Positions 45,845 to 62,551 of a DNA stretch of 64,000 nucleotides are shown one piece after another; position 1 is the stretch's first letter; every line of letters starts with the position of its first letter. Source of the DNA: Bdellovibrionia bacterium (GTDB lineage Bacteria; Bdellovibrionota; Bdellovibrionia; Bdellovibrionales; JAGQZY01); contig JAUHWH010000004.1 of assembly GCA_030424715.1 (NCBI GenBank), positions 32,437 to 96,436 on the forward strand. Direction: 5' to 3'. The position numbers and the translations under genes are program-made. A model generated the notes under the pieces. That model did no database searches. It saw only the letters and a list, made by a program, of their open reading frames with translations, and had not been told where the DNA came from.

Positions 45845-46532
45845 GACAGTCGCTATTTTTGTCGCGGTTTCGACGATGTTGGTTGTGCTGAGCACCCTGT
45901 GGTTGCAGACCAGTCGAAAGCAGAGGTCAGAAGAGAGAACCAATCGGTTGATTGAAAAAACCGTTAAAGAACGAGTTGATCATTTGAAAATAGAAAAAGC
46001 TACACCGGTTGATGATAGTTCCGCAAAGCATGTTGGAGAGAAACCTTCGGGTATTGATGCTTATTTGTCTAAGATAGAAAAGATTATTCGACTAGAACGC
46101 AAGGTGATTCGAAGTGCTTCGGACAATTCGAGTCTAGAGAAAGCCTTAGCTAATCGAAAGTTGATCAACCAATCCTTGTTGTTTCTAAGTGATGTGGAAC
46201 TTGTGGGTTCTCTTGGTCTCAAGGGCAACCAAGAGCTCAGGATGCAGGCAACGCTATTTTTGTCTCGTGCCTTGGAGTGGCAACAAAACCCTGAGCTTCC
46301 TTGGATACTCGACAAGGTGGGCGACTTTGTGGGTGCTGACAGTCTCAGTGCTATTAAAGATCTTGAAGTCCGCCGCTCTTTTGCTGCCGATAAAGTCGAG
46401 TTGTTTACCAATTTAAAAGATATTTATTTCGAAAAGGGTCTGCAGATTGAACATGAGAATCAGTCAGAAACCAACGCGCGACTCTTTCGCTTTGCCAACA
46501 ATTTTTATAAACTGAATAAACGGGAGATTTGA
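45834..46532 (+). CDS. N-terminally membrane-anchored alpha-helical protein (hypothetical)
   Basis: ATG 45834 after AAAGGAG, overlapping the upstream gene by 11 nt. TM segment VAIFVAVSTMLVVLSTLWL. Confidence 0.5.
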   Translation: MKNRTVAIFVAVSTMLVVLSTLWLQTSRKQRSEERTNRLIEKTVKERVDHLKIEKATPVDDSSAKHVGEKPSGIDAYLSKIEKIIRLERKVIRSASDNSSLEKALANRKLINQSLLFLSDVELVGSLGLKGNQELRMQATLFLSRALEWQQNPELPWILDKVGDFVGADSLSAIKDLEVRRSFAADKVELFTNLKDIYFEKGLQIEHENQSETNARLFRFANNFYKLNKREI

Positions 46533-46533
46533 A

Positions 46534-49392
46534 ATGAGAATTCTAATGGTATTATTTTGTCTAAGCTTTCCGATGATAGCGTTTGCTAATCATAGTCTAC
46601 CAGCCGGAGAGGATAAAGAGGCCGTGCTAGGGATGGGTTTTGATTCTGAAAAAGAGAAGTTCACGGGAACCTGTCTCAAAGGAAAGCTGGTGCGTCGAGG
46701 AAAGCAAGAGGCGAATGTCGCTTTCGAACAAAGTTTAGATCAAAACTCTATGAAAAAAGAGCTGGGTATTGATGCTGGGACCCGATTTCGCTATGGCGAG
46801 GCAACGGTGAAAGCCAGCGCCAAGTTTATGAAATCCAGTCGTAGTGACGGATTTTCTATTTCTGCCGTTTATTCGGGCGACTACAAATTTAAAAACGATA
46901 TTCTTTACTTCGAGGATTCTGCGGACACTCAAGATATAAAGGGGCTTGAGAAACAAAGGTTAACTGATATCGGGAAAGCTGTGCGAAATGACGATGATCG
47001 CTGGCGTGAAACCTGTGGTGATGAATACGTCACGCAAATTGTGCGAGGGGCGAAGTTATTCTATTCAATTAAAATCGAATTTTTAACACAAGAAGAAAAG
47101 GACCTGTTTGAAACGGCCTTTAGTTATGATTCCACATTTGCTTCTGTGAAAGCCAGTCTGAAAAACATTTCTGAGAATTTCAGTAAAAGAACAAAAATCA
47201 CGGTCGGGGCTTTGCAAATTGGTGGGGACACGCGAAAAATTACCGAACTCTTTTTCGACAACAAAGAAACTGGTGACAGTAGTTCAATGGGATTTGTGAA
47301 ATGTTCATTTGGGGACCTTGCCAAATGTGACCAGGTGATGGCTAATGCGATTCGCTACGCCACCAAAGACTTTAAAGACCAACTGGAGTCAAAACCGGAT
47401 CAGCCGAGCTACGAGGGTGGACCCGCAGACCTACGCTATATTACCGCTCCCTATGCTGATGCTGGAATTTTTCCAAAGTTTTCTTCGATTTTAACCGCAG
47501 CAGTCCGAGCGAAGCGATGGGAACTAGAGACCTTGTTTGATCGTCTCATGGACAACCTAGGTACGGTCAATTCCCTGTTAACCTCAAGTTCCGTGGTTTT
47601 GAGCCCGAGGCAAAATGGACTCCTAAAGACGGTGAAGCAAGAACTCGACAAAGACGTCAGAAGCCTCATTTTGGCGGCAGAGACTTGTTACAACTCTGTC
47701 GAGGAGTGTGTTGCCACAGCGGATTCGATCACACCAAAACTGAGTGAGTTTGATGAGAATTCAGTGATCATTTTACCTGAAACCTTTCGACAGTACTGTG
47801 CCCGGTCAGAGAGTACCCTTTCGACTAAAAAGCTAAGCACCTCGATTCGGGGGATGTTGGATGCTGCTCGAGAAATCGAGCCAGACAGCTTTAGTAGTGA
47901 TCCTGGGGGCAAGACAGATTCTTGTTTGCAGGCTCATAATGTGTTTATGAGAAATAACGAGATAAGAACGTTTTCTGGTAAAAAAATTAGTACGTTGGTG
48001 CCTCTACAGGAATATAGCCATTTTGTAGCCGTCGACTTTTCTGAGAACTCTATCGATGACCTCGAGCCGCTCCACGACTGGAAAAACCTGGAGGAGTTGG
48101 ACTTAGGCGACAATAAGATTCGCGATCTGGTTTTTTTAGAGAGACTCGTTAACTTGAGGTTATTATCCTTAAGCAACAACCACCTGCGAGACATCAGTCT
48201 TTTAACAAAACTCCCCATGCTTGAGCGGGTTGATGCGAGAAACAACTTCGAGACGGTGAGCTGTCAGAGCTTTTCGCAAGACGTTGTTTGCCTTAGTGCA
48301 ACCGTGCGGACTGACGCGAAGTTTGTCCATACGTCGACGACAACATCTCGACCACTGTTTATGCCGTCTTTAGTGGATTTGCGGGGTGGGGAGTTCTTGG
48401 TCCTCAGTGATAACCAAGATGTGCAAACTTACCGTTTGGCTGACAATAGCTTTAGTATCACGGGACGTTTGAGTCTTAAGTCTCGTGGTCGGGTCGCGAC
48501 ACAGTTGGCTGATGGTGACATTTTGATCACCGGCGGTTGGTTGTCGGGTAATTCTTTAGCTATTTACAACCCAGAGCTTGGCCAGATGATGCAAGAGTTC
48601 AAAGGGCTGCAGGTACAGCGTGTTGGACACACCAGCACACTTCTTGACGATGGACGTGTGCTTTTGGCGGGCGGCTGGGAAGGCGGAGTGAGTTTCTCCG
48701 GGACAGATGCCACTTATACGGCTGAGGTTTTTGATCCCGAGACAAATTCGACTTATCCGGTGGGCAACCTGCATGCACCAAGAGCTTGGCACACAGCAAC
48801 TAAGCTCTTCGACGGGAAAGTTCTGATTGTTGGTGGCTTTGACTGGAGCAGCGGTATCGCCACGGCCGAGATCTTTGACCCCGAGACCAATGAATTCACT
48901 CAGCTAGAATATTCTATGGCACAAGGGCGTGGGGCTCACTCAGCCACTGTGCTGGCCAGCGGAAAGATCTTACTCGCCGGGGGATTTGATTTGGGTGCCC
49001 AGGCCATTGATCGTGCTGAGCTGTTTGATCCTGCGGTCGGTAAATTTTTGCCCATCAAAGAGACTTTGAATTGGGCTCGCGGCATGCACTCAGCAGTGCG
49101 ACTCAATAATGGCAAGGTTCTATTGGCGGGTGGTTCTGTTGAGCCTTTTGCTCCGGACCATCCCGTCGATTTCACTCCCAATGATCATATCGATCGCGGT
49201 GAGCTTTATGACCCTGTTGAGAACAGCTTTATGAAGGTACCAGGAAAGATGGCTGTTCCGAGAGCACGCCACGGAATGTATGAAACCAAACCCGGAACCG
49301 TATTAATTATGGGTGGTTTAACCTGGGAATCAGCAAATAAGCTCGAAATCTTTAACTATGTGGATGTGAATACAACTTCACCACTGCAGTGA
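46534..49392 (+). CDS. Secreted MACPF-like pore-forming domain / leucine-rich repeat / six-blade Kelch protein
   Basis: Signal peptide. MACPF-like LGMGFDSEK... and CGDEYVTQIVRGAKLF (compare the (Y/W)GTHYvxxxxxGG signature). LRRs NLEELDLGDNKIRDLVFLERLVNLRLLSLSNNHLRDI. Six Kelch units of the type DGxvLxxGG(w/f). Confidence 0.7.
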   Translation: MRILMVLFCLSFPMIAFANHSLPAGEDKEAVLGMGFDSEKEKFTGTCLKGKLVRRGKQEANVAFEQSLDQNSMKKELGIDAGTRFRYGEATVKASAKFMKSSRSDGFSISAVYSGDYKFKNDILYFEDSADTQDIKGLEKQRLTDIGKAVRNDDDRWRETCGDEYVTQIVRGAKLFYSIKIEFLTQEEKDLFETAFSYDSTFASVKASLKNISENFSKRTKITVGALQIGGDTRKITELFFDNKETGDSSSMGFVKCSFGDLAKCDQVMANAIRYATKDFKDQLESKPDQPSYEGGPADLRYITAPYADAGIFPKFSSILTAAVRAKRWELETLFDRLMDNLGTVNSLLTSSSVVLSPRQNGLLKTVKQELDKDVRSLILAAETCYNSVEECVATADSITPKLSEFDENSVIILPETFRQYCARSESTLSTKKLSTSIRGMLDAAREIEPDSFSSDPGGKTDSCLQAHNVFMRNNEIRTFSGKKISTLVPLQEYSHFVAVDFSENSIDDLEPLHDWKNLEELDLGDNKIRDLVFLERLVNLRLLSLSNNHLRDISLLTKLPMLERVDARNNFETVSCQSFSQDVVCLSATVRTDAKFVHTSTTTSRPLFMPSLVDLRGGEFLVLSDNQDVQTYRLADNSFSITGRLSLKSRGRVATQLADGDILITGGWLSGNSLAIYNPELGQMMQEFKGLQVQRVGHTSTLLDDGRVLLAGGWEGGVSFSGTDATYTAEVFDPETNSTYPVGNLHAPRAWHTATKLFDGKVLIVGGFDWSSGIATAEIFDPETNEFTQLEYSMAQGRGAHSATVLASGKILLAGGFDLGAQAIDRAELFDPAVGKFLPIKETLNWARGMHSAVRLNNGKVLLAGGSVEPFAPDHPVDFTPNDHIDRGELYDPVENSFMKVPGKMAVPRARHGMYETKPGTVLIMGGLTWESANKLEIFNYVDVNTTSPLQ

Positions 49393-49907: not shown

Positions 49908-50267
49908 ATGACGACTTCACTTCTCACGTATTTGGCATTCGCTATTGGTAGTGTCGCTTTTATAATAGGCCTCTTAGCCATGTTGTTACCGACCAAGATG
50001 AGCGAAGGATTTGGTATTGCAGTCTCAGGGGCGGGCGTTCACTACGTTCGAGCTTTAGGAGTTCGAGATGTCTTTGTGGGGCTCGTGGTATTATTGCTTG
50101 GGTATTACGAGCAATGGACATCTCTAGGCTACGTATGTATTGCCATAGCCATTGTCGCAGCCAGTGATTTTTATACAGTCTTTCGGTACGGCCAACGCCA
50201 AGCCAGTTTCGCGCACCTGGCAGGTTTTGTTTTAAGCCTGGTGTTCTCGGCAGTCTTTTTTTGGTGA
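49908..50267 (+). CDS. DUF4267-like small membrane protein
   Basis: Four hydrophobic helices. ...RALGVRDVFVGL... pattern. Confidence 0.5.
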   Translation: MTTSLLTYLAFAIGSVAFIIGLLAMLLPTKMSEGFGIAVSGAGVHYVRALGVRDVFVGLVVLLLGYYEQWTSLGYVCIAIAIVAASDFYTVFRYGQRQASFAHLAGFVLSLVFSAVFFW

Positions 50268-50718
50268 CCCACATCCCTTGTACCTAAACCTATCAATAGA
50301 GTTCACTATTCGGCCGAGTAGATCTCCGACGTCGTTTGGAGTGGCGGTAACCTCTGCGAAACGCCACGAAAGCCTACCCTAGAACTGAGCACCATAGGCC
50401 CTAGCTGTAAGAAACTAGAGAATAAGCGCCAGATTGACTGAAGCCAATTATCGTTTATTCAGGTTCAAAGCAAGTAAGTCATTTTCTCTGAAGAGGTAGA
50501 AGTGGCATTTCACGGCCAAGAAGGTTGATTTAATTGTATCGCAGCTGAGAGTTTGCTCTATTTTTGTCCGGAATTCGGAATACTCAGCCTAAGTAGTGGA
50601 AATTAGATAAGTTAGTGGGTGTAAAATTACCAATATAAAGTGTTTAAATTGACTCAAAAATGCATATTCCATACAAGAGGTCCCTATGAACCTTGAGATT
50701 AACAAAGGGAAATATTAG

Positions 50719-51024
50719 ATGAACAAATTTAAGAACACGATCTTGGCACTAGCTTTCGTTTTTTCGCACTCACCAGCCTTTGCTGAGATGTGCATTTTGG
50801 GTAAGCAAGAAATTGTTTTGGCTGACGACTTTATTGAGTCTTTGACACCTGAGCAAAGAAAGTATCTCGATGCCGCTTTGAAAAAAGCTCAAGCCGATCC
50901 TGAAATTGAGCTTGAATATCAGCCAGGATGGGAAGAGTTCGATCTTGATAGCCTCGAAGCTACGGCCTGTGGCACACTTTCAAGCAATACGAATCCGACA
51001 GCTTCCGCGGGCGAACATTTTTAG
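50719..51024 (+). CDS. Small secreted acidic protein with an S/T/C-rich C-terminal tail
   Basis: Signal peptide MNKFKNTILALAFVFSHSPAFA. Mature part of 78 aa ending ...LEATACGTLSSNTNPTASAGEHF. Confidence 0.5.
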   Translation: MNKFKNTILALAFVFSHSPAFAEMCILGKQEIVLADDFIESLTPEQRKYLDAALKKAQADPEIELEYQPGWEEFDLDSLEATACGTLSSNTNPTASAGEHF

Positions 51025-51047
51025 TCGTCCTTGCCCAAGTACGTACG

Positions 51048-52097
51048 ATGAACTTTCTTGGAGACGCCCATAATTTTGGACAAAAAGTTAACAGGGAAGA
51101 CGACATCGTCAAAAAGCCACGTCCCGTCTTTTGGGAGTGGCTTTTTTTAGATACGGAAAGTGAGTTAAGACAGCTTCTCTCAAAAAGATCTCGGTTAGTC
51201 AGTACAGAAGACCCATTTTTATCATTTCCAAATTTGAATGTTAAAGAAGCCCCTGGGCTTCATGGTTTTCCGGCGGGAGTCGTTGATTACTTTCAAACGA
51301 CTGTTCCGGAAAAATCAGCAATGACTGATTCGTTAGCGAAAGCTGTTGGAAGAGCGATAGGAGTTGCTCATTTTTTTGGTCTCAGTGACCTTCATATTGA
51401 AAACTTTGGTGTTTCACAAATTACAAATGGCTGTTTCTTCTTTCCATTGGATATCGAAGTTATATTCAATCGTCTCAAATTAGCTTCTCAAACCTATATT
51501 TTAGACAGCGTAAAGAATGAATCTAAGATTGTTGGTCTGTCTTTGATGAGAAACAAAAACTTAAATATAGCGGCAGTTATTAGTAGTTACCTGCTGACCA
51601 TAGAGTTTTTGAATACTAATTTGAAAGAAATTAACGATGTTCTCGTTAAGTTAAATGTGAAAAGTATACCGATCAGGTGTATTGTGAAGCCATCGATGGA
51701 GTATGCTGATTATCTCAGGACCGATAACATCGAGTCCTCGGTCTTTTACCCAGAGGAACTGGAGCAGCTCGAGAGAGGGGACATCCCCTATTTTTTTCAC
51801 TATCTGGGCGACTATAGCATTAGATATTTAACTAAGGATGGCGAGAAAGTTACGAGTTTTTCATGGGAAGATGTATTCAAAATGGATTTGATATCGGAAA
51901 GTCAAATTGAACAACCAGTGTCTGTAGTTGATGAAAATGCAATAAAAGCCTCGATTCTGCAGATAGCAAGAACTTTAGACACTACCGTTGAGAATGACTT
52001 TTCGTTTGAAGCCACAACTGTTTCGTTTCAGGGTGACTCAATTTTTATAAAGTGTGGAACGGGTTGGAAGCTGAAATGCCAAAGGATGTCAAAATAG
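51048..52097 (+). CDS. Stand-alone DUF4135 protein (LanM N-terminal kinase/dehydratase-like domain, no LanC cyclase domain)
   Basis: LGDAHNFGQKV...IVKKPRP; GLSDLHIENFGV...FFFPLDIEVIF; IRCIVKPSMEYADYL; ELEQLERGDIPYFF. These blocks parallel those of class II lanthipeptide synthetase N-domains. No signal peptide. Confidence 0.6.
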   Translation: MNFLGDAHNFGQKVNREDDIVKKPRPVFWEWLFLDTESELRQLLSKRSRLVSTEDPFLSFPNLNVKEAPGLHGFPAGVVDYFQTTVPEKSAMTDSLAKAVGRAIGVAHFFGLSDLHIENFGVSQITNGCFFFPLDIEVIFNRLKLASQTYILDSVKNESKIVGLSLMRNKNLNIAAVISSYLLTIEFLNTNLKEINDVLVKLNVKSIPIRCIVKPSMEYADYLRTDNIESSVFYPEELEQLERGDIPYFFHYLGDYSIRYLTKDGEKVTSFSWEDVFKMDLISESQIEQPVSVVDENAIKASILQIARTLDTTVENDFSFEATTVSFQGDSIFIKCGTGWKLKCQRMSK

Positions 52098-53566
52098 CTA
52101 GATCTGCCCTCGTGTTTTTTCTTTTCATCCAAGCAAATCTTTCGGTGGCTTCTTCCGAGTTAGGTGTTGCTATACCTTCCTATATTGAAACCTATGAACC
52201 GAGTAAAGGGTGGAGCTTTTACCAACGTTTTATTATGAATTGCGTGTATCAGCGACTTTTCTCAATTGACCAGTTCGGTCAGGTTGAAGGTGAGCTTGCC
52301 GAGAGCTGGTTCTTTTCAAAATCTGGTAAGACTCTTACCTTAACAGTGTCTGATAAAGCGCGCTTCAGCGATGGTTCACCGGTTACCCTTGATGATATAT
52401 TCCTGTCATTGTCAAAACCGTTTGCGACTCCCGAAGATAGTTATGTTAACAGAGTTCTCGGGCCAGCTATGGGCTTGAGGGCTCCATTAAAAGTGGGTGA
52501 GATTCTTCCCAATCTTAAGCGGTTGGGTGGCCGCAGTTTTGCGATTGAGATGCAGCAAGTCTACCTTCCACTTATTGATATTCTGGGTAGCTACCTTTTT
52601 CCTGTGATGAAAACTACGGATAACTTACTCGGTTCAGGACCTTACATAGCGAAAAAAGAGAGACGAGGCCTGTGGACCCTCTATACAAATCCCTTTCATC
52701 AGGAGGGTGCTAAAAAAATTAAGAAAATAAAAATTTTGACGGAATTCTCGCAAGAAAAAGTCCAAAAATTGATTCAAAACAAAGAGATACACTTTGCTAT
52801 GGGATTCCACCTTCGAGACCTCCAGGATCAAGAAGGGACCTTCACAATCAAAAAGGTTTTGAAAGCAGGTTACAATCATTTCTATTTCAACCTCGAGAGT
52901 AGGTCTCTAAAAGATAAAAGTTTTAGAGCTTATCTTGGGCATATACTTAAAGACGTAGCAAGAAACCATTACTCACGGTTTGAGGAGTTCGTGCCACGAT
53001 TGCTTCCTCGAGGGCTACTACCCCTCGCTTATCATTCGCAGACGGTTGCGGCCCCAAAAGTCACCTTGCAACAAACGAAACTAAATATGCCAAGGTCGCG
53101 GATTAAGCTTTTATTTGTTGGGCGACACTTTGCGGATGGATTCTTCGAAGAGCTTCAAGCAGCTTTAGATAAGTCAGGCATAGATGGGAATATTGAGATT
53201 TTAAAAGGACCAGAGTATAACAAAGTAATACAAGAGAGAAAATTTGATGTGATTTCTTACCCGGTGATTCCTTCTTATCATGATCCAGATGGTTATTTTG
53301 CTGACCCAACCTATTTTTCAATTTGTGGTGATAAAAGGACCTGCCCCTATAAAAAAATGCTTTTAGCGGCAAGGTATGTAAAAGACAAGACGAAAAGAAG
53401 CGACCTTTTTTCTAAACTTTTTCGTAAAATTGAGTCGGATTGGATTCTTGTGCCTGGCTTCAAGACATCTATTCCGATTGCTATTTCAAATGATTTGATT
53501 TTGCCTCCGATTAACTACCGTGATCAGGTGAAGCTTTGGAAAATGGAGTTCAGAAATGCAAAGTAG
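52076..53566 (+). CDS. Periplasmic solute-binding protein, family 5 (peptide/nickel-type)
   Basis: Signal peptide. ...GELAESWFFSKSGKTLTLTVSDKARFSDGSPVTLDDI..., typical of SBP_bac_5. Overlaps the upstream gene by 22 nt. Confidence 0.7.
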   Translation: MPKDVKIARSALVFFLFIQANLSVASSELGVAIPSYIETYEPSKGWSFYQRFIMNCVYQRLFSIDQFGQVEGELAESWFFSKSGKTLTLTVSDKARFSDGSPVTLDDIFLSLSKPFATPEDSYVNRVLGPAMGLRAPLKVGEILPNLKRLGGRSFAIEMQQVYLPLIDILGSYLFPVMKTTDNLLGSGPYIAKKERRGLWTLYTNPFHQEGAKKIKKIKILTEFSQEKVQKLIQNKEIHFAMGFHLRDLQDQEGTFTIKKVLKAGYNHFYFNLESRSLKDKSFRAYLGHILKDVARNHYSRFEEFVPRLLPRGLLPLAYHSQTVAAPKVTLQQTKLNMPRSRIKLLFVGRHFADGFFEELQAALDKSGIDGNIEILKGPEYNKVIQERKFDVISYPVIPSYHDPDGYFADPTYFSICGDKRTCPYKKMLLAARYVKDKTKRSDLFSKLFRKIESDWILVPGFKTSIPIAISNDLILPPINYRDQVKLWKMEFRNAK

Positions 53567-54908
53567 CACTCCAAATTTGAAAAATAAGATTATTCTCCCC
53601 ATCATAGTTTCGAGCTTGATTATCCTTTCTTTTTTCACGGTTGTTTTATTTTTTACCTTTAATGATAAGCTCCTTGAGATTTCCAGTAGACAATATGAGG
53701 CTACTCTAGAGGTTTTTTCCAGGTCCATCCGTGATAGTTTTCTTAGAGGGCTCGATGGAGAAGTAAACCAATACTGTCGACTTATCCTCGCTGATGAGAA
53801 TGTTTCTTATGTTTCCGTGACTCGTGCTGATGGTGGAAAGATTTGTGATCTCCGGGGCGATAGGCCTTATGATCAGGCGATTGTTTTAGAAAGAGATATT
53901 CGTTTTAAAAAAGGTGGCGAGTCAGCTGGAGTTGTGGAAGTGCATTTCAATAGTGCGTATTATGGGTTGTTGATTGTTTATTTGGCATTGTCTTTATTTC
54001 TCTCGTTGTTTCTTTCCGTTATTCTATTCTCTTTCTTTGGCTCTAAATTCATAAGTCAGCAGATCGAACCCTTCTCACACCTAGCCGATCGTCTTTTTAG
54101 AGGGAAGGTTGAGGAACTTCAGGAGATTAACAAGATGCCGGGGGCCAATAGAAATTTCGAAATCCGAAGCTTAACAGATGGGGTCTCTTTCTTGGCGAAC
54201 TCCTTTATTTCCTATCAAGGAGAGATGGTAAAGTCGGAACGCCTCGATGCGATCAATGAGTATTCGAGATTGATTGCTCACGATATTAAAGCGCCAATAG
54301 CAGGAATTAAAGCAGGGGTGGATCATTTTAAAGCAAAGCCAGAAGCTTCCTTGAGGTTAATCTCTAGGAGTCTTGAGCGTATTGAATTCATGGTTGAGAG
54401 AATCCTAGAAAAAAATAAAATTGATGGGATTAAGCCGGAGCTGGAGCTCGTAAACTTCCAGAGTTGGTTTTTCACCTTAGAAGCGCCGTCTTTTGACGAG
54501 CTGGGGTATGATGAATCTAAACTCGAATTTGAACTGGTTGGTGACAAGAATGATGTTCTTTGCTTAGTCGATAGAGATCTCTTACTGCGAGCGGTATTAA
54601 ACTTACTAAAAAACTCGAAGGAAGCTATAGAGTCCACGGTAAAACCAAAGGTTCATGTAAAGGCGACATTGTCAGAAAAAGTGGTTATGCTTGAGATTAG
54701 AGATAATGGGCCTGGTTTCCCAAAAGAAGTTCTTGAAAACGTGGGGTCTCAAGGACTTACAATCGGTAAAGAAGGTGGAAGTGGGCTTGGAATCTATCAG
54801 GTCAAGAGGTCTGTGGAAATCATGGGAGGCGTGTTCTCGATTTCCAATCCGGTGGCGGGAGGAGCTTTTGTGGAGATTCATTTGCCCGTAAATAGTGGGA
54901 GTTTATAG
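53556..54908 (+). CDS. Sensor histidine kinase (2 TM, ~130-aa periplasmic loop), with no cognate response regulator nearby
   Basis: H-box SRLIAHDIKAPIAGI. N-box LLKNSKEA. DNGPGF and GGSGLGIYQV ATP-lid motifs. Overlaps the binding-protein gene by 11 nt. Confidence 0.85.
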   Translation: MQSSTPNLKNKIILPIIVSSLIILSFFTVVLFFTFNDKLLEISSRQYEATLEVFSRSIRDSFLRGLDGEVNQYCRLILADENVSYVSVTRADGGKICDLRGDRPYDQAIVLERDIRFKKGGESAGVVEVHFNSAYYGLLIVYLALSLFLSLFLSVILFSFFGSKFISQQIEPFSHLADRLFRGKVEELQEINKMPGANRNFEIRSLTDGVSFLANSFISYQGEMVKSERLDAINEYSRLIAHDIKAPIAGIKAGVDHFKAKPEASLRLISRSLERIEFMVERILEKNKIDGIKPELELVNFQSWFFTLEAPSFDELGYDESKLEFELVGDKNDVLCLVDRDLLLRAVLNLLKNSKEAIESTVKPKVHVKATLSEKVVMLEIRDNGPGFPKEVLENVGSQGLTIGKEGGSGLGIYQVKRSVEIMGGVFSISNPVAGGAFVEIHLPVNSGSL

Positions 54909-57013
54909 TGTTGAGTTTTGCTAATTTTATGAAATGGATTTTCTTCTTATATGTTTCATGCCTTTTACTTTCTTGTTCCACTACGGATAGAGACTACAAG
55001 TATGAAGACAATTTCTCTTTTTTGGAGACGCCTGACGCTAAGACGCAAAATTTTATTAAAACTCACAATAGGATTGCCAAAGAGAGCTTACTGTCAGACC
55101 CTTCACGCTTAAAGGAGAACGAGAGTATACTTGTCTCTAGTCAAACCAATCCTCGTATGACATTCGTGGGCCCCTACGTCTTCAAACTTGAAAAAAACAA
55201 GAGAAATCCACGCGGAAGGCTTCTTTTTACAGCCATAGACAAAATAGGTCAGAGATCTTCAGTTTGGAAGTCTGCCATTGACTTCGACAGACTATCGGCG
55301 AAAGAGAAAATCAAATGGTCCTTTTCAAAAATTGATTGTCTGTTGCCGGAAGCCAATTCTTGCCTTGTCCATCTCTCTAAAGATGGTGGCGATAAGGTCG
55401 AGGTAAGAGAATTTGATCTTCGAAAAAGACGGTTTGTAAAGAAAGGCTTTCGAGTCCCTATTGGCTTTACGAAAACGGCCTGGATCAACCCCAGCCAGAT
55501 TATGGTTGCAACGAACGTTGGTGACGGTACTGTCGGCTCTGGGGGACTTGCCAACCAGGTCAGACTGATCAGTCGGGGACAAAAGCTTACTGCCGGCAAA
55601 ATCATTTTTGGTCTTCAACCAGATTATATTAGTCTTTATTTTCAGGGACACCCCTATAAAAATTCTCAGCTTGTCATCGGAAGTCAGTTCGCTTCAGAGA
55701 AGAAAAATGATTTTTGGGTCCTGACTTCAGCAGAGCCTCAAAAAATTCCCACGCCCAAGGCGTCTATCTTTTATGGAATTCACAATGACTACCTTGTCTT
55801 CCAATGTTGGACTCCTTGGTTAGTGGGCGCGAAGCGTTGTGGAAAAGGGGATTTGATCGGAATACATATCGATCAAGCGGGGAGTAAACAGGCCTCTGAA
55901 GATAAGGTTATTGTTTTGTACAAAGCTCGCCCTGAATCATCTATTTACAGCGTCGGAGTCAGCTCCAAGGGTATTCTTGTAAATTATCTCGAGAATGTGA
56001 TTGGGAAGATTGTGGGCGTAAAAATTGACTCCAATCAAAAAAAACAGTCGCTACGACTTCGACGACTGTCTGGACACCTGCGGCTTCAAGAAGTCGACTA
56101 CAGAAAGGGTCGTTTTTTAGTCGGCAGCCAAGATTACCTCAACCCCGCAAGGCTTTCTTTATTCGATATCGATGAAAACAAAGCCTCGATCGTAAAAACA
56201 CAAGAGGCAAGTTTTGATTCAAAGGGCATGACTTATCAACAGCTTTGGGCCACCGCACCTGACGGTGTAAAGATCCCTTATTTTGTTGTTGGAAAGAAGA
56301 AAGCTTTAGCTAGTGGAAATGCTCCGACCATTGTTTTCTCTTACGGAGGTTTTGGTATCACCTATACTCCAAAGTACGATTCGTTGTTGGGAAAGAACTG
56401 GCTTGAGAAAGGCGGTCTTTACGTCCAGGCTGGCATTCGTGGTGGTGGCGAATTTGGTCCAGATTGGCACAAAGCCGCGTTACGAGAGAAGCGGGTAGTG
56501 GCCTTTGATGATCTTATTGCCGTTTTAAAAGACCTTGTTATTCGTAAGCTGACCACTAAGTCTAAGCTTGGGGCCTACAGCGGTAGTAATGGGGGCTATC
56601 TCTTAGGTGGGGTTATGGTGCGTGAGCCGAATCTCTTGAAAGCTGTCGCTCTTAAGGTGCCCTTGTTCGACATGCTCAATTTTCATCGCTTTCTTGCAGG
56701 TTCGAGCTGGGTTAGCGAGTATGGAGATCCAAGAGTTTCAAAAGACCGAGCTTTTCTAGAAAGGCTTTCTCCATATCAAAACTTATCTAAAAAAGTGAAT
56801 TATCCATCGACGTTTGTTTATACCTCTTCATCAGATGATCGTGTCCATCCAAGCCATGCTCGCAAGATGGCCGCCAAATTATTAGACTACGGGAGCGAAG
56901 TCTATTTTTATGAAAGTCAGGAGGGTGGCCACGCTGGAGCAGCAACACTCAAACAACAGGCTTATTGGGAGACCATGATGTTTCAGTTTTTCCAGTTAAA
57001 GCTTGGTCTGTAA
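54908..57013 (+). CDS. Prolyl oligopeptidase (S9A) family serine peptidase, lipoprotein
   Basis: GTG start after GGGAG, overlapping the kinase stop by 1 nt. Lipobox SCLLLSCS. Beta-propeller N-domain. Catalytic GSNGGYL (Ser), SSDDRV (Asp) and EGGHAG (His). Confidence 0.85.
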   Translation: MLSFANFMKWIFFLYVSCLLLSCSTTDRDYKYEDNFSFLETPDAKTQNFIKTHNRIAKESLLSDPSRLKENESILVSSQTNPRMTFVGPYVFKLEKNKRNPRGRLLFTAIDKIGQRSSVWKSAIDFDRLSAKEKIKWSFSKIDCLLPEANSCLVHLSKDGGDKVEVREFDLRKRRFVKKGFRVPIGFTKTAWINPSQIMVATNVGDGTVGSGGLANQVRLISRGQKLTAGKIIFGLQPDYISLYFQGHPYKNSQLVIGSQFASEKKNDFWVLTSAEPQKIPTPKASIFYGIHNDYLVFQCWTPWLVGAKRCGKGDLIGIHIDQAGSKQASEDKVIVLYKARPESSIYSVGVSSKGILVNYLENVIGKIVGVKIDSNQKKQSLRLRRLSGHLRLQEVDYRKGRFLVGSQDYLNPARLSLFDIDENKASIVKTQEASFDSKGMTYQQLWATAPDGVKIPYFVVGKKKALASGNAPTIVFSYGGFGITYTPKYDSLLGKNWLEKGGLYVQAGIRGGGEFGPDWHKAALREKRVVAFDDLIAVLKDLVIRKLTTKSKLGAYSGSNGGYLLGGVMVREPNLLKAVALKVPLFDMLNFHRFLAGSSWVSEYGDPRVSKDRAFLERLSPYQNLSKKVNYPSTFVYTSSSDDRVHPSHARKMAAKLLDYGSEVYFYESQEGGHAGAATLKQQAYWETMMFQFFQLKLGL

Positions 57014-57183
57014 AATCTTATCAGTTACTGCGTAATCAGCTGGTCATAAATGCTCTGTCTTGCGCCGAGGATTCATATCAGCCGCTCGCTAGTAACCAGC
57101 CATGCCAGGCCTCCAGAACAACCGAGACTCCCGAGGTAAGCCCGGTCACCCCAAGCTACGCCGAGAATCTTACTCTAACCAAC

Positions 57184-57453
57184 TTAGGTACCGTGACATC
57201 CGCGACGGACTTCTGAGCGGTGCTTTAATTTTCGTAAGCCACTCCCCCCCCCCCAAGATTCTTTTGTGATAGGCACCTCGCCCGCCTGCAAAAGGTAGAA
57301 GGGGTTGTGTCCTAGTTCGTGAGCAAGCGAAATGGCGAGATCAAAATCACTAAATTCTGATTCTGGGCAGAGACTCATGGTAAGCAAACCAAGGGTAGAA
57401 TAATTACTTCCACCGCCACCGATATAGTGAGTTTGCTCTTGTTTTTTTAGCAA
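57184..57453 (-). pseudogene. Remnant of a reprolysin/adamalysin-like (M12B-type) zinc metalloprotease
   Basis: ...STLGLLTMSLCPESEFSDFDLAISLAHELGHN matches the (gl.....mC ... AHELGHN) layout, but the GxxH(D) third ligand is missing. There is no ATG or RBS. The ORF carries a G11 tract and is short in all frames. Confidence 0.4.
57244..57254. repeat. C11 (G11 on the minus strand) homopolymer tract
   Basis: Read directly from act-ccccccccccc-aag. Confidence 0.95.
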
Positions 57454-57489
57454 CCAAATGTCTGATAAGCAAAAGGTCCGCCAGTCAGG

Positions 57490-58620
57490 TTATCTATTGA
57501 GTTTAGAGCCCTCAAAAAGAATATAGTTCTCCGCGATAGAAGGAGCCAACCTTTCTACCAGCCACTCATAAACATGTTGAGGTGGGTGAATATCAAAGTA
57601 CTCGTCTCCTGGGCGCTGATCACAAATGGAGTAGTTTCTGACATTGGGGCAATCAGACCCATTGGAACATCGTTGCTTTTGTCGTTCTTCCTTGCAGTAT
57701 TTTTTACCAATGGTATCCAACCGAAGCCAGGGAATGTCAGGATACTCCTCAACCACTTTCAGCCACTCACGTCGACTGATTTCCTGGGCGTAGGCCGAGA
57801 ACAGTGCGTGAATTTTGTGCATGCAAAACAACTTTGTATTTCTCTTCTCACAGCTAGCTCTGCGACTTCTTATAATGTTACGATTTATCATTAGCCAAAA
57901 GTATCGATAGAAGGCGCTCCTTAATACAAAAAACCGATGCCAAATTGGATATTCATCCCCTCGCTTGATAAGCAAAGGAATACTCTCGAGCCAAAGATCC
58001 CTATTTCTTTTCAAACGAACATTATATTCCTCATCGCGATAAAAAAAGGCCCTCCTGCCGGAGTTTGCATCCTGAACAATAACCAGGTCTGGGGCCAGAC
58101 GTGGAATCAGCTCTCTTGCATACGCTACTTTCTGAGACATCACATAGGCACTAAGTCCGGCATTCCAAACTTCGACTTTCTTCTTTAGCTTCATTTCATT
58201 TAATTTCTTTTCAAGCAGAGCGGGATAAGTCCCGTCATCGGAAACAGAGACTCCAAAAGTATTTGAGCCTCCAAGAACTAATATCCTATAAACATTTTCA
58301 GCTTTGACAAGAGAGTGACGACGACCGCGAAATCCAAATTCGTTCACACTAAGCTCGATATCACCCGTAATCACCTCGTCTTTATGTCGACAATTCTGCG
58401 TACAAATAGCTTTCGATTGAGGAATCAATTCATACACTCGCTCTGCGTTTTCAGACGGCCGGTAAAGCTCCACGCCTCCCTTGTAAGAAAAATCACCTTC
58501 AACAAAATAGGCTGTTGGCCAAAACTCTTTAACATCGAGATCTGTCGCTCTAATAACGATTTCTAGTGTCGCAAGGGATACAATAAATCCCACAAGAGTC
58601 AGAACAATTTTTCTAAACAT
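57490..58620 (-). CDS. SGNH/GDSL-like hydrolase with N-terminal membrane anchor
   Basis: Block I ILVLGGSNTFG. Block III VWNAGLS. Block V YFDIHPPQHVYEW. N-terminal TM helix. Confidence 0.55.
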   Translation of the reverse strand: MFRKIVLTLVGFIVSLATLEIVIRATDLDVKEFWPTAYFVEGDFSYKGGVELYRPSENAERVYELIPQSKAICTQNCRHKDEVITGDIELSVNEFGFRGRRHSLVKAENVYRILVLGGSNTFGVSVSDDGTYPALLEKKLNEMKLKKKVEVWNAGLSAYVMSQKVAYARELIPRLAPDLVIVQDANSGRRAFFYRDEEYNVRLKRNRDLWLESIPLLIKRGDEYPIWHRFFVLRSAFYRYFWLMINRNIIRSRRASCEKRNTKLFCMHKIHALFSAYAQEISRREWLKVVEEYPDIPWLRLDTIGKKYCKEERQKQRCSNGSDCPNVRNYSICDQRPGDEYFDIHPPQHVYEWLVERLAPSIAENYILFEGSKLNR

Positions 58621-58954
58621 CGTTTAAATTCGCAAGTGGCGCTACATCACAACGTAGTGAGATGAGTCGATTAAACAAACTATTCATTTTTTGTTTCTCC
58701 CGCAGAAATTCTACCAATTTTAAGTCCGAAACTCAAAAAAAATGTCAACACTATTTGTCTAACTGACCTGCCCGGGCTAACTGGGTCTACTAACAACTAC
58801 TTGGTTCGCTGGGTGCGCCGATTTTAGGTTGGCTTAGTCGAAGTCGGGTTAGATTCTAAAATTAAGTGATGCTAAAATCCAGTGAGCCAGTCCGGACACA
58901 TTCTCCAGTGGGGACTCAGCATGGGGAGAGGGGATCAATTGAAACTCTTTGTTT

Positions 58955-59152
58955 TCATTCTTCATGAAAAACTTTCTGAACACTAAAAAAGAGCTGGATA
59001 TCAAAAACTTTTTTGTCTTTGGGATCCGTGCGATCCTCAATCTCAATCCCGTCTGGGATACTATCGCCATCCGTGTCAGCGTTGTTGGGATCTGTTTTGT
59101 ATTTCTTGATCTCATCCCCATCATTGATGCCATCTCCGTCAGAGTCCGCCAC
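58955..59152 (-). pseudogene. Isolated thrombospondin type-3 (calcium-binding Asp-rich) repeat fragment
   Basis: MADSDGDGINDGDEIKKYKTDPNNADTDGDSIPDGIEIEDRTDPKD. It has no signal peptide and no flanking domain, and sits among other remnants. Confidence 0.4.
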
Positions 59153-59165
59153 TTTTGGTATTTTT

Positions 59166-59249
59166 GTGAGCCAAACCTCTCAAAAGCTGTCGCTCCCAAG
59201 GTGCCATTATTTGGAATGCTCAACTTTCATCGTTTTCTTGCAGGTTCGA
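59166..59249 (+). pseudogene. 84-nt fragment of a diverged prolyl-oligopeptidase paralog
   Basis: Ungapped hand alignment to 56622-56705 gives 71/84 identical. It encodes EPNLSKAVAPKVPLFGMLNFHRFLAGS versus EPNLLKAVALKVPLFDMLNFHRFLAGS in the intact gene. Confidence 0.6.
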
Positions 59250-59303
59250 AGGCTAGATCTCTGAACGATTGTCAACGATCCGGCATTGTGCTCTATTTTA
59301 TAC

Positions 59304-60125
59304 ATGAAAAAAATAATTTGTTTAATTAGTTTCTTGAACTGTGCCAGCTGTATCACCACGCCCTCAGCAAGTATCGTCTCTGACGGGAGCCAGGATCTTA
59401 AGGTTTGGTATCAGGTTTATAGGCCCAGTGAGGAAAAAGCCTTAAACAGGACCGTTATTATTTTTCCTCCCACCGGTGGTGTCACATACCTAGAGAGGTC
59501 CTATGCTTCTGCGTTAGTCAAAAAGGGAGCCACGGTAAAGGTCTTGCAAAAGTGGAGCGGAATGGATGAGTCCAGTGTTGAGCTTGAATTGCACCAGAGA
59601 TTACACGAAAAGGCCATGCAAGCCGTTGAACAAGTCATAAGCAGTTGTCCCGAGACTCACAAGATCTCATTGATGGGCACGAGTGTGGGCGGGATTTTCG
59701 CAGCTGTAGCAGCCAGTAAATTTCAGAGAATTGACAGAGTTCTCTCAGTTGCAGGAGGCAGCCCGATACCAGAGTTGATCGTGCACTCGGACTATAAAAC
59801 CATAAAGGAGCTGCGAGAAAAGCGTTTCGAGAAATTCGGTTTTGAGAATAAAGCCGAGTACCTGAGAGAACTCAACAGTCGATTCAAGCTCAACCCCCAT
59901 ACAATGCCACACAGATTTATGGATAAAAAACTAGGTCAGGTTATTCTCTTAAGAGACAAGTCTGTTCCGACCTTATCTCAAAAGAAGCTACAACAGCTTT
60001 GGGAGCCGACTTTTCTGCGTACAATTGATGCCGGCCATTTTTTTGGTATCGTTAAGGCCTGGTGGTTTTTTTCTGACGAAATAGTGAGCTTTCTTGTCAG
60101 TCAAAAGGATGCAAACCAGCATTAG
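59304..60125 (+). CDS. Alpha/beta-hydrolase lipoprotein
   Basis: Lipobox LISFLNCASC. Nucleophile elbow LMGTSVGG. Confidence 0.55.
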   Translation: MKKIICLISFLNCASCITTPSASIVSDGSQDLKVWYQVYRPSEEKALNRTVIIFPPTGGVTYLERSYASALVKKGATVKVLQKWSGMDESSVELELHQRLHEKAMQAVEQVISSCPETHKISLMGTSVGGIFAAVAASKFQRIDRVLSVAGGSPIPELIVHSDYKTIKELREKRFEKFGFENKAEYLRELNSRFKLNPHTMPHRFMDKKLGQVILLRDKSVPTLSQKKLQQLWEPTFLRTIDAGHFFGIVKAWWFFSDEIVSFLVSQKDANQH

Positions 60126-60226
60126 CACCATTCATACTTAGAGGTCTTAAAAACCAGAATGTAGCGAAGAAGGACTACGCACGCAGTGACAGCGGAGCTT
60201 TAAGAAAACCGCATTTTTAAGAACTT

Positions 60227-61021
60227 TCAACGGGTCATCGGGAGACTCAACGGAAGTTTTTTAAGATGCTTCCAGACATAGCTCTTGCCCCGCAGAATAA
60301 CTAATCGTGCAATTTCTGCCGTGGCTAGAGCCGCAGCTTGTGAAGATCCTGTTAATTTTCCGATACGGTTACCCGGCAAAGTTGAACTGATCTCAAATCC
60401 GGGAAAAAAGTAGTTAGTTTTGTTCGAGTTAATATTACTTGTCTCCATAACCTCACCTTGTGGCCCCGTACCGACCACGGAAATAACATTCGGAAAATTG
60501 TAGGCTGCGGGATAAAAAGCAAAGTTCACCTGCGCTGGTTTTTTATTACCGGCCGCCGCGACAACCAAAATATTTTGTTTATAGGCTCTTTGAAGAAGTT
60601 GGCTCTCCATCTCCGAAGGCTTCGGTCCACCGGCTGAAATATTAATAATATCGACGTTCAAACGGATCGCTTTGTCGATGGCTTCGGCCAAAGACAGCGT
60701 CAACTCTTGGTGATTTGAAGAGCTTTGGTAGTAGCGAATGGGAACAATCTCGATACGATCATTGAGCTGTCTTTTTGTAAGGGTGCTAGCAATAATGCCA
60801 GCGATGTGGGTTCCGTGGCCGGTAAGGTCGATTCCATCACTTTTCGAGGGAATCCTCACCATAGCTTGTAGAAGTTCGTGTTCAAAGTCGACTCCTGTAT
60901 CGATAACAGCAATCTTTAAAGGAGGCTGTTGCCGTAAGGTCACCGATGTTCGGCTGTGGCCAAAGAAAGGAAACAACAAAAAAGATATAAAAAAGAAATG
61001 GAGACTGCCTGCTCTTAACAC
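60227..61021 (-). CDS. S8 family (subtilisin-like) serine peptidase, compact
   Basis: Complete triad boxes IAVIDTGVD, GHGTHIAGII and LTGSSQAAALA, plus AAAGN. Confidence 0.85.
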   Translation of the reverse strand: MLRAGSLHFFFISFLLFPFFGHSRTSVTLRQQPPLKIAVIDTGVDFEHELLQAMVRIPSKSDGIDLTGHGTHIAGIIASTLTKRQLNDRIEIVPIRYYQSSSNHQELTLSLAEAIDKAIRLNVDIINISAGGPKPSEMESQLLQRAYKQNILVVAAAGNKKPAQVNFAFYPAAYNFPNVISVVGTGPQGEVMETSNINSNKTNYFFPGFEISSTLPGNRIGKLTGSSQAAALATAEIARLVILRGKSYVWKHLKKLPLSLPMTR

Positions 61022-61120
61022 CCCTCTATTTTAGCGAAGTGTGCAGGAAATCTCCAGGAAATGTGAACCAAAATTCACATTAATAGGCTAAGGCCCTTCG
61101 CGAGGGCCGGGAATCTTCAA

Positions 61121-61582
61121 TTAGTAGCGCTTGTCGTTGGTTCCAGTGTTGGAATCATCGCGCATGTTGCTGTCCATACTATTTGGCTGAGAGTAGTCGT
61201 TGTCGATACTGGCAGGTTGTCGGGTCTGCTCCATGCTGTCGTTTGAATTAGTGGCGGTGTTAATTTGCAGCGCTGCCACGGTTTCTTGATTCAATTCACC
61301 TGTTTTTGTATACAGCCCTTGGTCTTGTTGAAAAGAGGCGAGAGCATTTCGGGACTGAGTCCCTAGGATACCGTCAACATCCACTGAATAGCCTTTTTTG
61401 TTCAGTGTTCTCTGTACATCCATCACGGTGTCTTTCGAGAACTTATCGTGCTGTTTGTATTCAGAATTCATTTTATGGTCATTCATCTTCGAATGAGAGC
61501 CGTGACTTCCTGGTCCAGCGACAACCTGTGCGGTCCATAGCATTGCGATCATTGAAATTGAGTACTTGATAAATGTTTTCAT
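61121..61582 (-). CDS. Secreted peptidoglycan-binding (PG_binding_1) domain protein
   Basis: ATG 61582 after AAAGGAG. Signal peptide. VQRTLNKKGYSVDVDGILGTQSRNALASFQQDQGL. Confidence 0.7.
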   Translation of the reverse strand: MKTFIKYSISMIAMLWTAQVVAGPGSHGSHSKMNDHKMNSEYKQHDKFSKDTVMDVQRTLNKKGYSVDVDGILGTQSRNALASFQQDQGLYTKTGELNQETVAALQINTATNSNDSMEQTRQPASIDNDYSQPNSMDSNMRDDSNTGTNDKRY

Positions 61583-61864
61583 AACATCTCCTTTGTATAG
61601 CAAGAGAATCTCAAGATTTGCAGATTTTGTCTTGTTGCAGGTGTTGATAGCCTGTGAAAAGTTCAACACATCTTTTTAGGGTACCTATTCTTTCTCCCGT
61701 GCGGTGTCTCTTCAGTCGATCAAACCCTCGAAGTCGTTAAGGCGCGGCAAGGAGGTGGTGGGTTTATAAACCTATTTTACTGCCTGTAGAATCCAACCTA
61801 CTGAGGATGACATGGAGAGGGGGCGGTATCAGCTGAGTGACGGGTGATCTGCGCAAGGTGGTTG

Positions 61865-62551
61865 CTACGCTGCCTTTTTCTTCTGTCTCTGCTTATTTCT
61901 CGCGCGGCGAAATCCCTTAGCCACAGCTTCCTTCACAGTCCTTACAAAGTGCTCTCCATTTTCAGGGTGAATCTTCACTTTGTCATAGTAGGGATCAAAG
62001 GGGAGGTGGTAGATCTTTTCACCTTTGGAGTTCACATTGCACTTCACTAAAGCGTAGGTCTTTTTCAGTGGCTCTGTACTGAGTTCAATGCCCAAGACTT
62101 CTGCGACTTCTTTGGCTTTCTTGGTGTATTGGGCCGTTGTGTAAAAACGAGCAAAAACTTCGTGGCCCCTTCTTTTTGAAGTGCGTTTGAAGTGTTCCAT
62201 TGATCCGTAAAGTTGAAAAATGGAGTTTTCATGTATCTGTTTATAGCCAGCCCAGCACTTGGTTTGCACAATGACTGTCTCTTTGGCCTCGTAACTTGTG
62301 ATTATGAGATCTCGCCCCATGTCGCTAAAGCCATTGAGAGCACCGTGATAGTTGACGTGGTAGCCTTCAAGCTCGTACAGGTGACCAATGTATCTTTCGT
62401 AGAAAGTGCCTATTTCCAGTGGTGAAAAGTCCCCCTTTAAATACTGATCGAGACTCTTTTGCGCCTGATAGTTTTCATCGAGAACTCGGCGAATCCAGAA
62501 GATTAGAGTAGCCAAAATCCCGATGGCTAAAACAACAGGGATATATTCCAT
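61865..62551 (-). CDS. Membrane-anchored restriction-endonuclease-like (Mrr_cat) protein with a basic C-terminal module
   Basis: N-terminal TM. YERYIGHLYELEGYHV...SDMGRDLIIT...VIVQTKCW (PD-(D/E)xK-type core). The C-terminal VKCNVNSKGEKIYHLPFDPYYDKVKI module is seen on many DNA-associated proteins. Confidence 0.6.
   Translation of the reverse strand: MEYIPVVLAIGILATLIFWIRRVLDENYQAQKSLDQYLKGDFSPLEIGTFYERYIGHLYELEGYHVNYHGALNGFSDMGRDLIITSYEAKETVIVQTKCWAGYKQIHENSIFQLYGSMEHFKRTSKRRGHEVFARFYTTAQYTKKAKEVAEVLGIELSTEPLKKTYALVKCNVNSKGEKIYHLPFDPYYDKVKIHPENGEHFVRTVKEAVAKGFRRARNKQRQKKKAA

Follow-up and report, generated by a model that had tools for sequence, protein, structure and literature searches.

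Which function could unite, on one strand and nearly without intervening space, the genes for a small secreted acidic protein, a lanthipeptide synthetase-like enzyme, an oligopeptide-type binding protein, a sensor histidine kinase and a prolyl oligopeptidase? This question is raised by positions 50719-57013 of a stretch of 64,000 nucleotides (the window) from a Bdellovibrionia bacterium (contig JAUHWH010000004.1 of assembly GCA_030424715.1). A first-pass annotation had read the five genes as a translationally coupled operon and as a self-contained module for a peptide signal or a peptide made on the ribosome and modified after translation (RiPP). The analysis described here makes it highly probable that they form a conserved RiPP-type module. 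The precursor-like small proteins of related loci share a motif and have Ser/Thr-rich tails, proline in the tail goes together with the oligopeptidase, and export follows a pattern of Sec signals or major facilitator superfamily (MFS) transporters, all of which appears to support such a module. That the five genes act as one cassette which both makes and perceives a ribosomally made, modified peptide, through the full chain of steps set out below, we hold at about one in two.

Conservation of the cassette

Open reading frame (ORF) calling confirmed the five + strand ORFs at 50719-57013 and their junctions of +23, -22, -11 and -1 nt (Table 1), as laid out at first pass. The arrangement is not confined to the window. 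The stand-alone DUF4135 family, of which the second gene product is a member, splits into clades with differing neighbours, and within the window's clade (clade A) a Bdellovibrionales metagenome-assembled genome (locus L013) has the small ORF and the DUF4135, SBP_bac_5 (SBP5), kinase and S9 peptidase genes in the window order, flanked by genes that differ from those of the window (phospholipase A1 and RND efflux genes). All five genes stand in the same order in L174; they are also present in L175, with the kinase gene relocated upstream, and on the 3.8-kb contig of L002 the small ORF is followed by the S9 and the DUF4135 genes, directly after which the contig ends. Overlapping junctions are retained in the clade-A relatives at identities to the window proteins of 26-31% for the small protein, 35-39% for the enzyme, 25-31% for the binding protein, 29-31% for the kinase and 33-37% for the peptidase. 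Chance juxtaposition of the five genes was considered and rejected, since the module recurs with different flanking genes on unrelated contigs.

The synteny extends well beyond the full five-gene set. The genes of the Bdellovibrionota/Oligoflexia enzymes (~350 aa) are followed by an SBP_bac_5 gene and this in turn by one for a histidine kinase (for example in L008, L009, L011, L013, L014, L019, L021, L024, L032, L042, L081, L089, L091, L093, L164 and L168), and the core of small ORF, DUF4135, SBP_bac_5 and kinase is found in about 20 loci of these lineages. The enzyme family itself is not rare: an exhaustive hidden Markov model (HMM) search returned 359 clusters (50% identity) at E <= 1e-30, Myxococcota relatives included. 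The best 150 of the 359 clusters are 190-423 aa long, mostly 330-390, and are therefore stand-alone proteins. The same search brought up at least nine further representatives of the window's clade that the word index had missed, and a scan of metagenomes yielded mostly Myxococcota loci of the DTW type described next and only five new loci of the SBP type.

Relatives of the enzyme occur in other surroundings as well. In Myxococcota, mostly Polyangiaceae, about 110 loci have a stand-alone DUF4135 gene for a protein of ~400 aa that is nearly always followed by a DTW-domain gene (PF03942; listed under L003, L004, L007, L015-L092 and L094-L172), and in L007 DTW-domain genes stand on both sides of it. 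These proteins keep all LanM catalytic residues, and no precursor-like ORF was found beside their genes in a tblastx search that was swamped by high-GC noise. In L086 a 406-aa DUF4135 protein (7938-9158) is followed by a double-glycine-type peptide (9280-9453; KKIKGG followed by RADFEERQSIGNCWGPCG), with neither binding protein nor kinase, and may represent a different stand-alone DUF4135 RiPP type that does contain Cys. In the Oligoflexus variant L085 (7962-13031) the genes are ordered DUF4135, GG-motif precursor (IDLDDLEKIFGG followed by ARGSKGSGCLTNQE), SBP5 and S9 peptidase; it has no kinase gene, and a gene for an ECF-type sigma factor lies upstream.

The dehydratase-like enzyme

What kind of enzyme is the product of the second gene? 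Its first-pass assignment to DUF4135 has held up in profile search, in fold comparison and in the conservation of every CylM catalytic residue. The Pfam DUF4135 model (PF13575) scores 30.6 bits, marginally above the gathering threshold of 29 and over residues 98-146 only, and the LanM model TIGR03897 gives a separate short match at residues 233-275. A search of the Protein Data Bank (PDB) with the single sequence gave only a weak match to LicM2 (E = 0.6), and a family profile was therefore needed. This profile, A1, was built from 15 homologues of ~350 aa, in a family in which homologues of 330-420 aa exist, and its only convincing PDB matches are LicM2 (6st5, E = 2e-8) and CylM (5dzt, E = 8e-6). 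LicM2 and CylM are also the top Foldseek matches (E = 1.6e-7, probability 1.0) of an AlphaFold2 model built on A1 (pLDDT 78, pTM 0.84), the next being phosphatidylinositol 4-kinases; a resemblance of the CylM dehydratase to lipid kinases has been reported (PMC4550811).

In CylM, K274, D347, H349, N352 and D364 are required for phosphorylation and D252, H254, R506 and T512 for elimination of the phosphate (PMC4550811). Profile alignment assigns a counterpart in the window enzyme to each of them (Table 1). In a MAFFT alignment the nine positions are kept in 149-161 of 161 stand-alone representatives and the five phosphorylation positions in 152-161 of them; position 216, Ser in the window enzyme, is Thr in 149 and Ser in 12 of the 161 relatives. 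The protein ends at residue 349, with neither a LanC-like zinc cyclase domain nor a LANC_like match, and a hydropathy scan detected no hydrophobic segment in it. It also starts without the first ~245 residues of CylM. Taken together, its alignments identify the 349-aa protein as a DUF4135 family member with a predicted intact kinase-plus-lyase site and not as a LanM, since the cyclase domain and the ~245 N-terminal residues are absent and the TIGR03897 score lies far below its cut-off.

Precursor-like small proteins

The small protein encoded by the first gene carries a canonical Sec signal at residues 1-22 (nt 50719-50784; MNKFKNTILALAFVFSHSPAFA, followed by EM) with predicted cleavage between SPAFA and EM. 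Its mature form is acidic and has four Pro, as predicted at first pass, but is 79 and not 78 aa long. An AlphaFold2 model of the protein, which is of low confidence (pLDDT 48) and was used solely to tell helix from disorder, has a helix only at residues 36-59 and a disordered tail at 78-101.

The small ORFs of the related loci have in common the motif [FILV]-[DN]-[LM]-x-x-[ILY]-E, after which come a further 10-23 residues. Motif and tail read FDLDSLE-ATACGTLSSNTNPTASAGEHF in the window, FDMDELE-TQEANSSIQPTNPV in L002, FDMDEYE-VIEASNSIYPTVTEPAQK in L013, FDLDDME-SEVMNASIVPTHPL in L174, LDLEQIE-SEQYQTAGYTSVSSGPDETPNLR in L175, IDLDSIE-ATTVISSSTVGTF in L014, IDLTSIE-AEAESYESSASSN in L089, IDLECLE-ILAETDSSETGIN in L009 and IDLDDLE-KIFGGARGSKGSGCLTNQE in L085. 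A regular-expression scan for the motif over 255 kb of 22 Bdello-type contigs gave 17 matches, of which 13, in as many contigs, adjoin DUF4135 and four are off-target; the control, 1.43 Mb of other loci that are GC-richer and hence an imperfect comparison, gave a single match. Leaders of class II lanthipeptides contain an acidic E/D-L-x-x-L/I-E element, to which the motif appears similar.

The tails average 31% Ser+Thr over 16 precursors. Cys occurs in two of these 16 tails and in neither that of L174 nor that of L175, and the five orthologues of clade A share no conserved Cys. In most loci the small ORF, preceded by a Shine-Dalgarno sequence, lies directly upstream of the enzyme gene, at a distance of 0-23 nt. 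It is likewise 0-23 nt from the next gene in the five clade-A loci, the peptidase gene intervening in L002, and just downstream of the enzyme gene in L085, whose precursor is the only one with a GG motif. These loci thus have what is looked for in a RiPP cluster, namely a short precursor gene beside the enzyme gene with a conserved motif and a variable core. A word-indexed homologue search with three clade-A precursors returned those three alone, from an index that misses at least nine clade-A enzymes.

Export, processing and regulation

If the small proteins are precursors, how do they leave the cell? The long ones (85-111 aa) all have a Sec signal (n = 9: window, L002, L011, L013, L019, L024, L042, L174 and L175), and on none of their nine contigs was an MFS gene detected, with the proviso that the L002 contig ends right after the enzyme gene. 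The short ones (n = 10), of 22-31 aa or, in L085, ~50 aa, have no signal peptide, and an MFS gene belongs to the cluster in six of these ten loci (L008, L009, L021, L081, L089 and L091). As to the other four, the contig ends near the cluster in L014, L093 and L164, and no MFS gene was detected in L085. Counting transmembrane (TM) segments of the MFS proteins by hydropathy is too crude to give their topology. In L009 a single gene (9067-11688) encodes an 873-aa fusion of MFS_1 (residues 14-348) and SBP_bac_5 (447-787) with a hydrophobic segment (383-401) between them; an identical gene is present in L010 and a homologous fusion in L165. It is uncommon for an MFS transporter to have a binding domain tethered to it.

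Proline follows the peptidase. It is present in the tail in five of six loci with a prolyl oligopeptidase and in none of 12 without; among the 16 tails it is restricted to the clade-A loci window, L002 and L013, to which L174 and L175 add two. All five clade-A precursors have an additional Pro 5-16 residues before the motif, so that cuts after proline would free a segment of about 25-38 residues that is colinear with the short precursors.

Regulatory genes differ between the clusters too. An NtrC-type sigma-54 activator gene heads the clusters of L008, L089 and L091. Pfam scores a receiver domain in the L021 kinase only; in L008, L089 and L091 the kinase is extended at its C-terminus by sequence that looks receiver-like but receives no Pfam score. 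Perfect sigma-54-type -24/-12 elements (TGGTAT-N5-TTGCW) precede the precursor genes of L042 (6631-6646) and L093 (6456-6471), against a background rate of 0.0085 per 300 nt, and L081 has a near match; upstream of the window precursor gene no match was found. The first-pass annotation had described the module as devoid of LanC, ABC exporter and response regulator. This is borne out among the window ORFs surveyed (ORFs of at least 180 aa in 1-33 kb and of at least 110 aa in 33-64 kb), in which Pfam found no LANC_like, Response_reg or ABC_tran domain. As a general trait it does not hold: the absence of regulator and exporter is local to the clade, because genes for a regulator of the NtrC type and for an MFS transporter are present in sister clusters.

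Binding protein, kinase and peptidase

The three remaining products agree with their first-pass descriptions. The predicted periplasmic binding protein has a signal peptide and a family-5 domain (SBP_bac_5, E = 5e-22). Its PDB matches (AapF, OppA and NikA) are weak, and these alignments place it as a divergent member of the peptide/nickel cluster. A word-indexed search at E <= 1e-10 returned the query alone, the index being the one that misses clade-A enzymes. The SBP5 proteins of the loci all carry export signals. No BPD_transp domain was found in the cassette or in the window ORFs surveyed; permease genes were not tested for in the other loci.

The kinase has a HATPase_c domain (E = 2e-16) and the H-box AHDIKAP, HisKA itself scoring 22.2 bits, below its cut-off of 26.9. 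By hydropathy it has two hydrophobic segments at residues ~12-30 and ~138-156 with a loop of ~105 aa between them, which is predicted to be periplasmic, and the kinases of nine other loci have the same two-TM topology and ~105-aa loop.

The peptidase combines Peptidase_S9 (E = 2e-37) with a Peptidase_S9_N propeller and aligns over its full length with the post-proline cleaving enzyme of PDB entry 4hvt (E = 4e-86). Its segments GSNGG, DDRVHP and GGH align to conserved columns of this match, and we take them to contain the catalytic Ser, Asp and His, respectively, of an S9 enzyme. Its N-terminus, LLLSC followed by STT, is lipobox-like, and all five clade-A orthologues have a Cys after the hydrophobic region.

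Genomic context

The cassette lies in an AT-richer, accessory-looking part of the window, as had been noted at first pass: GC is 0.39-0.43 over 51-56 kb and ~0.46 in the whole window, and accessory-looking neighbours surround the cassette at 42959-49392 and 57490-64000 (Table 1). The nearest MFS gene of the window (30758-32107) is unlinked, ~19 kb upstream of the cassette. In scans of 50200-57600, sigma-70 promoter-like sites were as frequent as in shuffled sequence and terminator-like sites about twice as frequent as there; none of these sites marks the ends of the cassette. About 2 kb downstream is the relic of a second prolyl-oligopeptidase gene (59021-59249, + strand), a stretch of which (59166-59249, 84 nt) matches 56622-56705 with 84.5% identity; in translation the similarity covers 94 residues at 40% identity.

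Table 1. Features of the cassette and its surroundings in the window
Feature	Position	Strand	Remarks
Precursor-like small protein	50719..51024	+	101 aa
Leader-like motif F-D-L-D-S-L-E	50938..50958	+	residues 74-80; motif scan
Putative core/tail ATACGTLSSNTNPTASAGEHF	50959..51021	+	residues 81-101; 7 Ser/Thr, 1 Cys, 1 Pro
DUF4135-like dehydratase	51048..52097	+	349 aa; no cyclase domain; predicted cytoplasmic
Enzyme D6, H8 (GDxHN)			CylM D252, H254; phosphate elimination; profile alignment
Enzyme K23 (KPRP)			CylM K274; phosphorylation; profile alignment
Enzyme D114, H116, N119			CylM D347, H349, N352; phosphorylation; profile alignment
Enzyme D135			CylM D364; phosphorylation; profile alignment
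Enzyme R210			CylM R506; phosphate elimination; profile alignment
Enzyme S216 (S/T in family)			CylM T512; phosphate elimination; profile alignment
SBP_bac_5 binding protein	52076..53566	+	496 aa from ATG; alternative start GTG at 52052
Sensor histidine kinase	53556..54908	+	450 aa; no receiver domain
S9A prolyl oligopeptidase	54908..57013	+	701 aa; lipoprotein-type N-terminus
HINT/pretoxin-domain protein	42959-43819		window flank
S8 peptidases, two	43820-45844 and 60227-61021		window flanks
Kelch + LRR secreted protein	46534-49392		952 aa; window flank
Asp-rich, calcium-binding-repeat-like ORF	58955-59152	-	
Mrr_cat and AbiEii-like genes	61865-63991		window flank

Discussion

How might the five products work together? 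From gene content, conservation, enzyme family, catalytic residues, precursor motif and predicted locations we infer a substrate, a chemistry, cleavage sites, peptide binding and sensing that can be arranged as follows, along the sequence of modification, export, trimming, binding and sensing that the first-pass annotation had proposed. The 101-aa product of the gene at 50719 would be the precursor, the C-terminal part of which offers the leader-like FDLDSLE and the Ser/Thr-rich tail. The cytoplasmic 349-aa enzyme would bind the motif and phosphorylate Ser/Thr of the tail using ATP, and would probably eliminate the phosphate again to leave dehydroalanine or dehydrobutyrine, elimination being expected because the elimination residues are intact. 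As both a cyclase and a conserved Cys are lacking, the product cannot be a lanthipeptide and would be a linear dehydro- or phospho-peptide. The modified precursor would then be exported via Sec by its own signal peptide, in place of which the sister clusters appear to pair a signal-less precursor of 22-31 aa with an MFS transporter; there is precedent for cytosolic enzymes that act on signal-peptide-bearing RiPP precursors ahead of export (PMC13056109). In the periplasm the lipoprotein prolyl oligopeptidase may cut after P68 and P93, which bracket the motif and tail, and so release a peptide of ~25 aa, which equals the short precursors in size. The family-5 binding protein could capture this peptide and present it to the periplasmic loop of the kinase, which in turn would signal to an unlinked regulator, a role that the NtrC-type sigma-54 activator might fill in the sister clusters. 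Of this last part we are less sure than of the RiPP-type module; that binding protein and kinase sense the product of the cassette has, in our judgement, slightly less than an even chance.

Several points weigh against this chain of events. Each of its steps has been put forward on computational grounds. A Sec substrate would need to be modified before translocation. Prolyl oligopeptidases usually accept peptides of about 30 residues or fewer, and the exported propeptide is 79 aa long. The Ser/Thr residues begin directly after the motif, with no recognisable leader cleavage site. On the side of the enzyme, the Pfam DUF4135 match is marginal and spans just 49 residues, TIGR03897 gives 27.8 bits against a cut-off of 304, and Ser216 stands where CylM has the elimination-critical Thr512. 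There is no response regulator among the window ORFs surveyed, and the MFS::SBP5 fusion of L009 could mean uptake instead of sensing. Finally, the correlations of proline with the oligopeptidase and of signal peptides with the absence of MFS genes follow the clades and thus reflect few independent events, which is likewise true of the correlation in regulation.

Could the peptide, then, be made for another end, or the enzyme act on something else? One unlikely alternative takes the product not for a signal but for a RiPP of the bacteriocin kind that serves as a weapon or in predation, with a kinase that autoregulates its production like NisK/SpaK and a binding protein that provides immunity or sequesters the peptide like LanI. 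The enzyme is after all kin to lantibiotic synthetases, LanRK and LanI are common in lantibiotic clusters, and the hosts belong to predatory lineages. The peptides, however, are strongly acidic, nearly free of Cys and unlikely to be cyclised, in contrast to membrane-active lantibiotics; no LanFEG-type ABC immunity genes were found among the window ORFs surveyed, and the partners that accompany the enzyme most constantly are binding protein and kinase.

Alternatively, the traffic may run inwards, the binding protein, with or without MFS, importing an external or recycled peptide that the cytoplasmic DUF4135 enzyme, after import, phosphorylates or dehydrates for activation, inactivation or trapping, while the oligopeptidase trims peptides for uptake. 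The best argument for such uptake is the MFS-SBP5 fusion of L009 and L165 with the hydrophobic segment between its domains, to which may be added that family-5 binding proteins normally supply importers and that oligopeptidases are common nutritional enzymes. It nevertheless strikes us as improbable: the cassette of the window's clade has neither an MFS nor a permease gene, a dedicated motif-bearing small ORF lies beside the enzyme gene in nearly every locus, synthesis of the short precursors takes place in the enzyme's own compartment, the cytoplasm, and the kinase is left without a role. Even less credence do we give to the view that the DUF4135 protein phosphorylates something other than the neighbouring peptide, such as a lipid, a small molecule or a protein of the signalling pathway, and that the small ORFs encode unrelated secreted or regulatory peptides. 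Phosphatidylinositol kinases do have the closest fold after LanM, and the Myxococcota clade, which keeps the catalytic residues next to DTW genes and for which no precursor was found, is the strongest argument in favour of it. Yet the elimination residues are invariant, which in the known members is meaningful only for phospho-Ser/Thr peptides, in most loci precursor and enzyme genes are closely coupled, and the tails are enriched in Ser/Thr. A cassette that makes and perceives its own modified peptide remains our preferred reading, in line with the first-pass interpretation, which all the available computational tests support.

What would follow if this reading is correct? The ~350 residues of a LanM dehydratase would suffice for peptide recognition and dehydration and might serve as a compact tool for introducing dehydro-amino acids. 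Peptide pheromones are generally regarded as a Gram-positive trait; if Bdellovibrio-like predators have a circuit of modified peptide, binding protein and kinase, this would be relevant to the way in which they coordinate their behaviour. It is conceivable, though we consider it doubtful, that the Bdellovibrionota/Oligoflexia loci represent an unrecognised RiPP class of linear, Cys-free acidic peptides, with Ser/Thr dehydrated or phosphorylated by a minimal LanM-type enzyme of 350 aa, export by Sec or MFS and perception outside the cell by a dedicated pair of SBP5 and kinase. Predatory Gram-negative bacteria would then possess a self-contained pheromone circuit based on a modified peptide. Our preferred reading, if correct, would also delimit a family of RiPPs that escapes standard mining. 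One large study of lanthipeptides was anchored on LanC (PMC7268733) and a network study of DUF4135 removed proteins of less than 500 aa (PMC10676384), so that both would miss the cassette on account of the LanC anchor or the 500-aa floor.

Comparison with known systems

The cassette looks like a RiPP cluster with a LanM-type dehydratase, and its composition appears to be undescribed: full-text literature searches found no description of it, in agreement with the impression recorded at first pass, nor is a pair of family-5 binding protein and histidine kinase described for a RiPP in the searchable papers. Its nearest relatives are the class II lanthipeptide clusters (LanA, LanM and LanRK; CylM and LicM2), with which it shares an ATP-dependent type of dehydratase domain that has a lipid-kinase fold and the nine catalytic residues, a small precursor gene immediately upstream of the enzyme gene, a leader-like motif of acidic character and a histidine kinase of the cluster. 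Different from these, however, its enzyme has 349 aa and no LanC-like cyclase, as compared to ~900-1000 aa for class II LanM, its core has no conserved Cys and can form no thioether rings, and instead of a LanT-type peptidase-ABC exporter there is a Sec signal on the precursor (MFS in the sister clusters) together with a constant family-5 binding protein. Phr/Opp signalling of Firmicutes is similar in that a propeptide is exported by Sec, its C-terminal end is released by extracellular proteases and the peptide is recognised by a protein of the OppA family (SBP_bac_5). Phr peptides, though, are unmodified, imported by an ABC transporter and perceived by cytoplasmic receptors, whereas the cassette encodes an enzyme for modification but no permease, and its receiver is probably a membrane kinase.

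The dehydrazole enzyme CcaM ('LanMbC', PMC10676384) is likewise a divergent DUF4135 dehydratase that gives dehydro-amino acids without lanthionine rings. It is however ~1000 aa long and requires a class III cyclase-like domain and prior azole formation (PMC10676384), whereas the cassette has neither YcaO nor a cyclase-like domain. Chryseobasin ChrA, DybA and the bufferins (PMC13056109) show the same order of an N-terminal Sec or lipoprotein signal, modification of the C-terminal part by a cytosolic enzyme and subsequent export, but rely on MNIO iron enzymes acting on Cys where the cassette would use a LanM-type kinase/lyase on Ser/Thr. S9A peptidases in RiPP clusters, with Pro at the presumed cuts, are known from FlaP of class III lanthipeptides, POPB and PCY1 (PMC10885120, PMC8341899); the oligopeptidase of the cassette differs in being a predicted periplasmic lipoprotein, with prolines on both sides of the segment. 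Finally, the pairing of a gene for a periplasmic binding protein with one for a transmembrane sensor, with docking presumed, recalls LuxP-LuxQ, TorT-TorS and DppA-Tap (reviewed in PMC9602780), from which the cassette would be set apart by a ligand that is a modified peptide of the cell's own making.

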